The notes below the pieces were generated by a model that ran no database searches, was not told the origin of the DNA, and saw only the letters and a program-made list of their open reading frames with translations. From NCBI RefSeq assembly GCF_003334335.1, contig NZ_QOWQ01000232.1: a stretch of DNA of 237 nt; one strand, given 5' to 3'. A program made the translations under genes and the position numbers. The stretch's first letter is position 1. Every line of letters begins with the position of its first letter. Shown here piece by piece: positions 1 to 237 of this stretch. The stretch comes from Escherichia coli (GTDB lineage: Bacteria > Pseudomonadota > Gammaproteobacteria > Enterobacterales > Enterobacteriaceae).

Positions 1-237
1 GTTTGAATGGAAAGGGCTGAAGAAATTATGCGTGGCAGTCTCCTTTCGGTCCATAATAGCAGAACAAAAGAAAGAGCCAGAAATGACGGTCAGATATTAT
101 ATCAGTTCTGCTGATTTAACCGCTGAGAAATTCGCCACAGCGATCCGAAATCACTGGCACGTGGAGAATAAGCTGCACTGGCGTCTGGACGTGGTAATGA
201 ATGAAGACGACTGCAAAATAAGAAGAGGAAATGCAGC
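1..237 (+). CDS. ISAs1-family (H-repeat-associated) DDE transposase, internal/C-terminal fragment; partial at both window edges
   Basis: Seen in sequence: the frame with codon phase starting at base 2 is open for 78 codons to the window end, while + frames 1 and 3 hit TGA at bases 4-6 and 18-20. The translation is [78 protein letters not shown]. Established knowledge, recalled rather than searched: the segment [30 protein letters not shown] matches the conserved C-terminal region of ISAs1-family H-repeat transposases known from Escherichia coli and relatives. No start or stop codon is in the window, so the true gene boundaries lie outside it. Confidence 0.85.
1..237 (+). mobile_element. Interior of an ISAs1-family insertion sequence (H-repeat element); element ends and inverted repeats not in window
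   Basis: Inference from the transposase CDS: ISAs1-family elements are about 1.2-1.4 kb and consist mostly of this one transposase gene, so a window inside the gene is inside the element. No terminal inverted repeats or target-site duplications are visible here, so whether the element is complete cannot be judged. Confidence 0.7.

Follow-up and report, generated by a model that had tools for sequence, protein, structure and literature searches.

A 237-nt stretch of Escherichia coli DNA is an internal piece of an H-repeat (ISEc1) transposase gene, an element found at the ends of Rhs islands

The stretch of Escherichia coli DNA analysed here, 237 nt in full and called the window below, raises the question of which gene it comes from, and of which genomic copy of that gene it could represent. 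An earlier note on its letters had recognised an H-repeat/ISAs1 element in it and had expected an Rhs element or an O-antigen cluster in the neighbouring DNA. We addressed these points with protein profiles and with related copies in complete genomes.

The window proved to be a piece from within the H-repeat transposase gene (ISEc1, ISAs1 family). Frame +2 (nt 2-235) was the only one of the three forward frames without a stop anywhere in the window, and the ORFs in the remaining frames were 20-35 aa long. The 78-aa product of frame +2 scored 93 bits with the NCBIfam profile NF033564 'ISAs1 family transposase', for which the curated cut-off is 70 bits (E=1.9e-26; aligned to positions 227-299 of the 314 in the profile). 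It also matched Pfam DDE_Tnp_1 (PF01609) with E=2.3e-6 at model positions 139-185 of 200. Since the profile cut-off is exceeded, the encoded transposase is a member of the ISAs1 family, and the H-repeat/ISAs1 identity of the window is far beyond chance. Together with the 100% identity to annotated ISEc1 genes, this result confirmed the identification in the earlier note.

On the plus strand, positions 1-237 of the window are equivalent to nt 897-1133 of the 1,291-nt element, with 100% identity to positions 12001-12237 of the K-12 locus (L001). Positions 2-235 (+) are a fragment of the ORF for the ISAs1-family DDE transposase of the YhhI type (codons ~252-329 of 378; NF033564, PF01609), and this fragment corresponds to the C-terminal third of the DDE_Tnp_1 catalytic domain. 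A conserved 10-residue block at positions 152-181 (+) falls in the region that aligns with the C-terminal portion of DDE_Tnp_1. By analogy with the usual organisation of DDE_Tnp_1 transposases, the third acidic residue of the DDE triad is likely Glu ~306 of the full-length protein, encoded by the GAG at nt 164-166. No terminal repeat, target-site duplication or flanking DNA was found within the 237 nt, and an Rfam scan of the window with E up to 1 gave no RNA family.

The anatomy of the whole element was read from identical and related copies. In the K-12 locus the window lies inside yhhI (L001 11249-12385, 378 codons), and the ends of ISEc1 were set by a homology comparison of 16 copies. Because the homology among the K-12 and other copies begins and ends exactly at L001 11105 and 12395, the element is 1,291 bp long; it contains one transposase ORF for a 378-aa protein. 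This agrees with the compact form of ISAs1-family elements (~1.2-1.5 kb, one transposase ORF). The terminal inverted repeats, which the earlier note had proposed to locate, were recognised in the related copies by eye and by copy comparison. They are short and imperfect, CAGGGAAAGATCA and CAGGGCAAGATTA (reverse-complemented) with 11 of 13 positions matching, and both are outside the window; the output of a generic inverted-repeat finder did not include these true termini. Full-length K-12 YhhI carries PF13808 (DDE_Tnp_1-associated) at residues 8-94 (E=1.9e-33) and PF01609 (DDE_Tnp_1) at residues 102-343 (E=1.7e-29), so the architecture of the ISAs1 family, an N-terminal DDE_Tnp_1-associated domain and then the DDE_Tnp_1 catalytic domain, is present. 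A sequence search of the PDB gave no solved-structure relative of full-length YhhI.

To which copy does the window belong? A megablast of the 237 nt against 5,426 complete E. coli genomes gave 17,113 matching places in 5,234 of them, with a median of 3 in each genome; 13 of the places were plasmid-borne. The matches were annotated as 'ISAs1-like element ISEc1 family transposase', often as yhhI. The window was 100% identical, in the same reading frame, to K-12 yhhI (ISEc1 or H-rptB), the H-repeat that ends RhsB, and no difference from it could be detected in the window. Within K-12, yhhI was the only copy with this identity: RhsE-linked ydcC and RhsC-linked ybfL were 97.0% and 96.2% identical to the window, and most of the window region is missing from ybfD and yafF, in ybfD because of an internal deletion. 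A copy with 99% or greater identity to the window was found in 1,853 records, a number close to that of the genomes with the yhhI-yhhJ junction (1,825). The copy at the yafV site of strains E2865 and O111:H8 was also 100% identical over the window, and its identity to yhhI across the entire element was 97.8%. Since the RhsB copy and the yafV-site copy are identical over the window, the 237 nt cannot fix the locus.

We are highly confident that the window is a piece of the ISEc1 transposase gene, taken most probably from yhhI at the end of RhsB or, less likely, from the yafV-site copy. The first candidate source would be yhhI at the distal end of RhsB, between the Rhs tip/immunity genes and yhhJ, an arrangement carried by the 1,825 genomes above. 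The second and less likely candidate would be the copy in the T6SS-linked Rhs island adjoining yafV (298 genomes). From either source, the cargo upstream of the transposase gene would be a polymorphic Rhs toxin with its immunity gene and orphan modules.

The strongest alternative places the window in the 'min-5' T6SS/Rhs island beside yafV (E2865/O111 type), and not in the RhsB-linked yhhI. In that case, the element would be a genuine simple insertion that has a 10-bp duplication, with rhs-ydcD and a second, divergent ISAs1 copy upstream of it. The yafV-site copies of E2865 and O111 match the window just as perfectly as yhhI and retain the GCGTTAAACA duplication. However, the E2865-type yafV junction is found about one-sixth as often as the yhhI-yhhJ arrangement, and the transposase gene at the yafV site of E2865 and O111 has an internal stop, which is located outside the window and leaves the window unaffected. 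We consider this source unlikely, and yhhI is the preferred one.

The association of the element with Rhs genes was then measured. In 13 of 17 sampled contexts an Rhs gene lay upstream of the transposase gene at a distance of up to 8 kb, and it was immediately upstream in all three window-identical copies inspected (K-12 RhsB, and the T6SS/Rhs-yafV site of E2865 and of O111:H8). These numbers from related genomes agree with the statement in the earlier note that H-repeats are found at the ends of Rhs elements. The 13 Rhs-linked contexts occupied five chromosomal sites, RhsB-yhhJ, RhsC-ybgA, RhsE-pptA, vgrG/Rhs-nfrB and T6SS/Rhs-yafV, which match the Rhs regions tabulated for laboratory strains (PMC3032704). 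Four contexts were exceptions without Rhs. K-12 yafF is a 280-bp remnant whose T6SS/Rhs island is gone, and L014 (6437-8460) holds an intact solo copy of the ISEc1 family between ansP and yddH. In L016 an internally deleted copy adjoins the non-Rhs T6SS effector pair Cpe1/Cpi1, and in L017 an IS1-truncated remnant is carried on a 'plasmid' with chromosomal cus-nfrBA DNA.

The sites were counted with junction queries made of element nt 897-1291 and ~305 nt of the right flank, and a genome was counted at 80% coverage or more. The junction with pptA (RhsE) was found in 2,354 genomes, that with yhhJ (RhsB) in 1,825, that with nfrB in 2,469 and that with ybgA (O157 type) in 686. The yafV junction occurred in 298 genomes as the E2865 type and in 3,181 as a second type, and the solo ansP-IS-yddH junction, without Rhs, in 564 genomes (~10%). 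All of these counts give the occupancy of a site and not the continued presence of Rhs; for example, K-12 yafF falls within the 3,181 genomes of the second yafV type yet has no Rhs. The seven junction types and the gnd-linked class described below comprise ~11,700 of the 17,113 places, with ~31% of the places outside these classes. The tandem copies of the K-12-type RhsC (ybfQ/ybfL/ybfD) are excluded from the census, as they have H-repeat sequence on both sides of the junction. Copies of the ISEc1 family were also annotated beside dkgB and beside a GGDEF-domain gene, outside the seven counted junction types.

The tandem arrangement in K-12 RhsC (L003 12303-14926) contains three abutting H-repeat pieces, namely nt 1-381, a full copy, and nt 25-913 fused to nt 1225-1291. 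This pattern does not fit a simple nested insertion. Partial-plus-full H-repeat pairs similar to it were seen in L013 and L019.

The solo class bears on the idea that the H-repeat is a marker. If the window came from a solo copy without accessory cargo, such as that in ansP-IS-yddH, the marker idea would fail for this copy. The solo arrangement is often the single copy of the genomes that carry it; the Rhs element is missing there, and ISEc1 abuts a truncated pptA. In L014, the right end of the element joins within the truncated pptA at the equivalent of position 15224 of the K-12 locus L004. However, solo copies are ~96.6% identical to the window and not 100%, and every window-identical copy inspected was Rhs-linked, so we regard a solo origin as very improbable. 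The advice in the earlier note to look for cargo in the DNA outside the window is sound by these related-genome numbers, with the 564 genomes carrying a solo copy as the exception class.

The flanks of the preferred source were inspected in K-12. On the left of yhhI are rhsB, yhhH and a pseudogene for a HEAT-repeat 'lyase', and on the right is core genome (yhhJ, rbbA). The GC content was 59-66% in the Rhs core, 33-44% in the segment of tip, immunity and H-repeat, and 52-60% in the flanks. The HEAT-repeat pseudogene (L001 10758-11108), which presumably resembles yibA of the RhsA element, has an internal stop and lacks its C-terminus. Its annotation stops at 11108, which coincides with the left boundary of the element (11105). 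It is not a simple insertion split, because the DNA past the element does not continue the gene. Thus, the flank inspection proposed in the earlier note gave Rhs cargo on the left, atypically low GC (33-44%) and an interrupted gene, the pseudogene ending at the element, though not one simply split by insertion. Flanks with core genes only, no cargo, no interrupted gene and normal composition, named there as the outcome that would speak against a marker role, were not observed at this window-identical copy.

Target-site duplications were sought in the related copies, again as proposed earlier; those of the ISAs1 family are ~8-10 bp. A perfect direct repeat of 10 bp, GCGTTAAACA, bounds the window-identical yafV-site copy in E2865 (L002 11096-11105 and 12396-12405) and likewise in O111 (L006). 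At the other 14 of 16 full-length copies no duplication was found when 6-14 bp were searched with one mismatch allowed. A clean duplication was thus seen in a single lineage, that of the E2865 and O111 copies. A simple model in which the insertion splits a gene was rejected for most copies, as duplications are missing at 14 of 16; adjacent deletions could be an alternative cause of their absence.

The mobility of the element was also assessed from plasmids. In PLSDB, 19 of 72,556 plasmid records matched the ISEc1 window; all were from Escherichia or Shigella and 18 were non-mobilizable. Several of these 'plasmids' were 0.4-4.9 Mb in size and look like mis-filed chromosomes. A plasmid-borne mobile copy was rejected on these numbers. 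According to the literature, transposition of H-rpt has not been observed (PMC3032704).

Comparison of the sites showed that the right flank was identical within each site, and the left flank varied between strains. A constant right flank with a variable left flank at each site suggests recombination, not fresh transposition. In L008 and L013, the right end of the element abuts an N-terminally truncated Rhs gene. Furthermore, a 5,062-bp rhsE'-ydcD-yncI-ISEc1 module is common to the pptA site of K-12 (L004 9903-14964) and the yafV site of E2865 (L002 7337-12396) and O111 (L006 3336-8396). The module is collinear with 96.8% identity, and its homology stops exactly at the right terminus of ISEc1. 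Within it, yncI (L002 10020-11146; L004 12587-13640) is a pseudogenised, divergent ISAs1-family copy in tandem, just upstream of ISEc1. It has ~67% nucleotide identity to ISEc1, and the ISEc1 target GCGTTAAACA is located just past this yncI copy.

The ISEc1 copies are probably old, now mostly immobile repeats at the fixed boundaries of Rhs islands. They may also provide homologous sequence for recombination events in which Rhs tip modules are exchanged or moved, a role that we infer from the flank patterns alone. More specifically, we tentatively suggest that the H-repeat could serve as a fixed right homology arm, paired with the conserved Rhs core on the left, when Rhs tip/immunity cassettes are exchanged and relocated between loci and strains. 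This arrangement is possible rather than probable; it would fit the flank pattern, the near-absence of duplications, the truncated Rhs genes abutting the element in L008 and L013, and the 5-kb module shared by two sites. Jackson et al. (2009; PMC2935791), the main paper on Rhs evolution, put forward circular intermediates and a movement of rhs to new loci; a term search of that paper gave no mention of H-repeats.

The other genomic setting expected in the earlier note was the O-antigen cluster. H-repeat/ISAs1 copies are also present in Vibrio gene clusters according to older literature. A composite query of 400 nt of gnd and the right 691 nt of the element, in both orientations, recovered genomes in which both parts are joined at one place. 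L019 carries an intact ISEc1-family gene in an O10-type cluster, with acyltransferase/glycosyltransferase genes on one side and gnd on the other, and L020 carries a pseudogene copy at the gnd end of a wzx-type cluster. With the L020 junction as the query, an ISAs1/ISEc1 copy was found at the cluster-facing end of gnd in 357 of 5,426 genomes (6.6%). These include O157:H7, in the order perB-ISAs1-gnd with ~89% identity. Therefore, the claim that H-repeats occur beside or inside O-antigen clusters holds for E. coli, with the O10-type cluster and O157:H7 among the examples. In the Salmonella group D2 cluster, an H-repeat remnant is present at the D1/E recombination junction, with yhhI as the comparator (PMC3715488).

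An origin of the window from a copy in or beside an O-antigen (rfb) cluster, where H-repeats mark junctions of recombination between clusters, would accord with the 357 gnd-linked genomes, the intact and pseudogene copies in two clusters and the Salmonella D2 remnant, but it is hardly likely, given that the two measured non-O157 copies are 96.2% (L019) and 97.9% (L020) identical to the window, that identity to the query is ~89% in the gnd-IS junction region of O157:H7, and that the gnd-adjacent arrangement is limited to 6.6% of genomes. None of the window-identical copies inspected was located in an rfb cluster (galF to gnd, with glycosyltransferase, wzx and wzy). The yhhI copy at RhsB remains the preferred source.

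The finding of an H-repeat/ISEc1 element is in itself already known, and the gene is annotated in RefSeq. The association of this element with Rhs elements and with O-antigen clusters has been in the literature since the 1990s. K-12 ydcC (RhsE) and ybfL/ybfD (RhsC) are the same 1,291-bp element with the same ends, likewise downstream of an Rhs gene, and ydcC-type genes are labelled ISEc5 by RefSeq in several genomes. The founding member of the family, ISAs1, is from Aeromonas salmonicida. ISEc1 resembles this family in its single ORF, its length of ~1.3 kb and its short terminal inverted repeats. A 10-bp duplication is present where the insertion is still intact, in one lineage; in contrast to the family, most E. 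coli copies have no duplication and are seemingly fixed at a few chromosomal sites. The H-repeat remnants in O-antigen clusters (Salmonella group D2/D3; E. coli O157) belong to the same element family as the window; the copies in such clusters are ~89-98% identical to it and are often remnants. The practical value of the present results is an annotation cue: a match in E. coli predicts an upstream Rhs or T6SS toxin island in most cases, and an O-antigen cluster instead in ~7% of genomes. The census also puts numbers on the rule that H-repeats mark Rhs elements and on its exceptions (~10% of genomes with a solo copy).

Several loci showed further features. In the RhsC-site island of strain STE15 (L008), genes for SymE-family type I toxins at 4210-4452 and 9463-9792 are on the opposite strand, positioned between orphan Rhs modules and H-repeat copies. 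In a bloodstream isolate (L016 5599-9859), the T6SS effector/immunity pair Cpe1/Cpi1 replaces Rhs at the yafV site. This pair is followed by the internally deleted ISAs1 copy, two small ORFs, one of which is annotated as 'integrating conjugative element protein', and another ISAs1 fragment. The 129-kb 'plasmid' pEcFELIX533.1 (L017 1-16060) contains a chromosomal segment with cusCFBA-cusRS and nfrBA-ybcH-envY, and its IS1-truncated ISEc1 remnant is at the usual nfrB junction. In strain A35 (L020 1-14219), the his side carries a wzm/wzt mannan cluster of the O8/O9 type, and the wzx-type cluster is located across gnd-ugd-wzzB from it. Adjoining gnd in this strain are the ISAs1 pseudogene and ltrA, a degraded reverse transcriptase gene of a group II intron.
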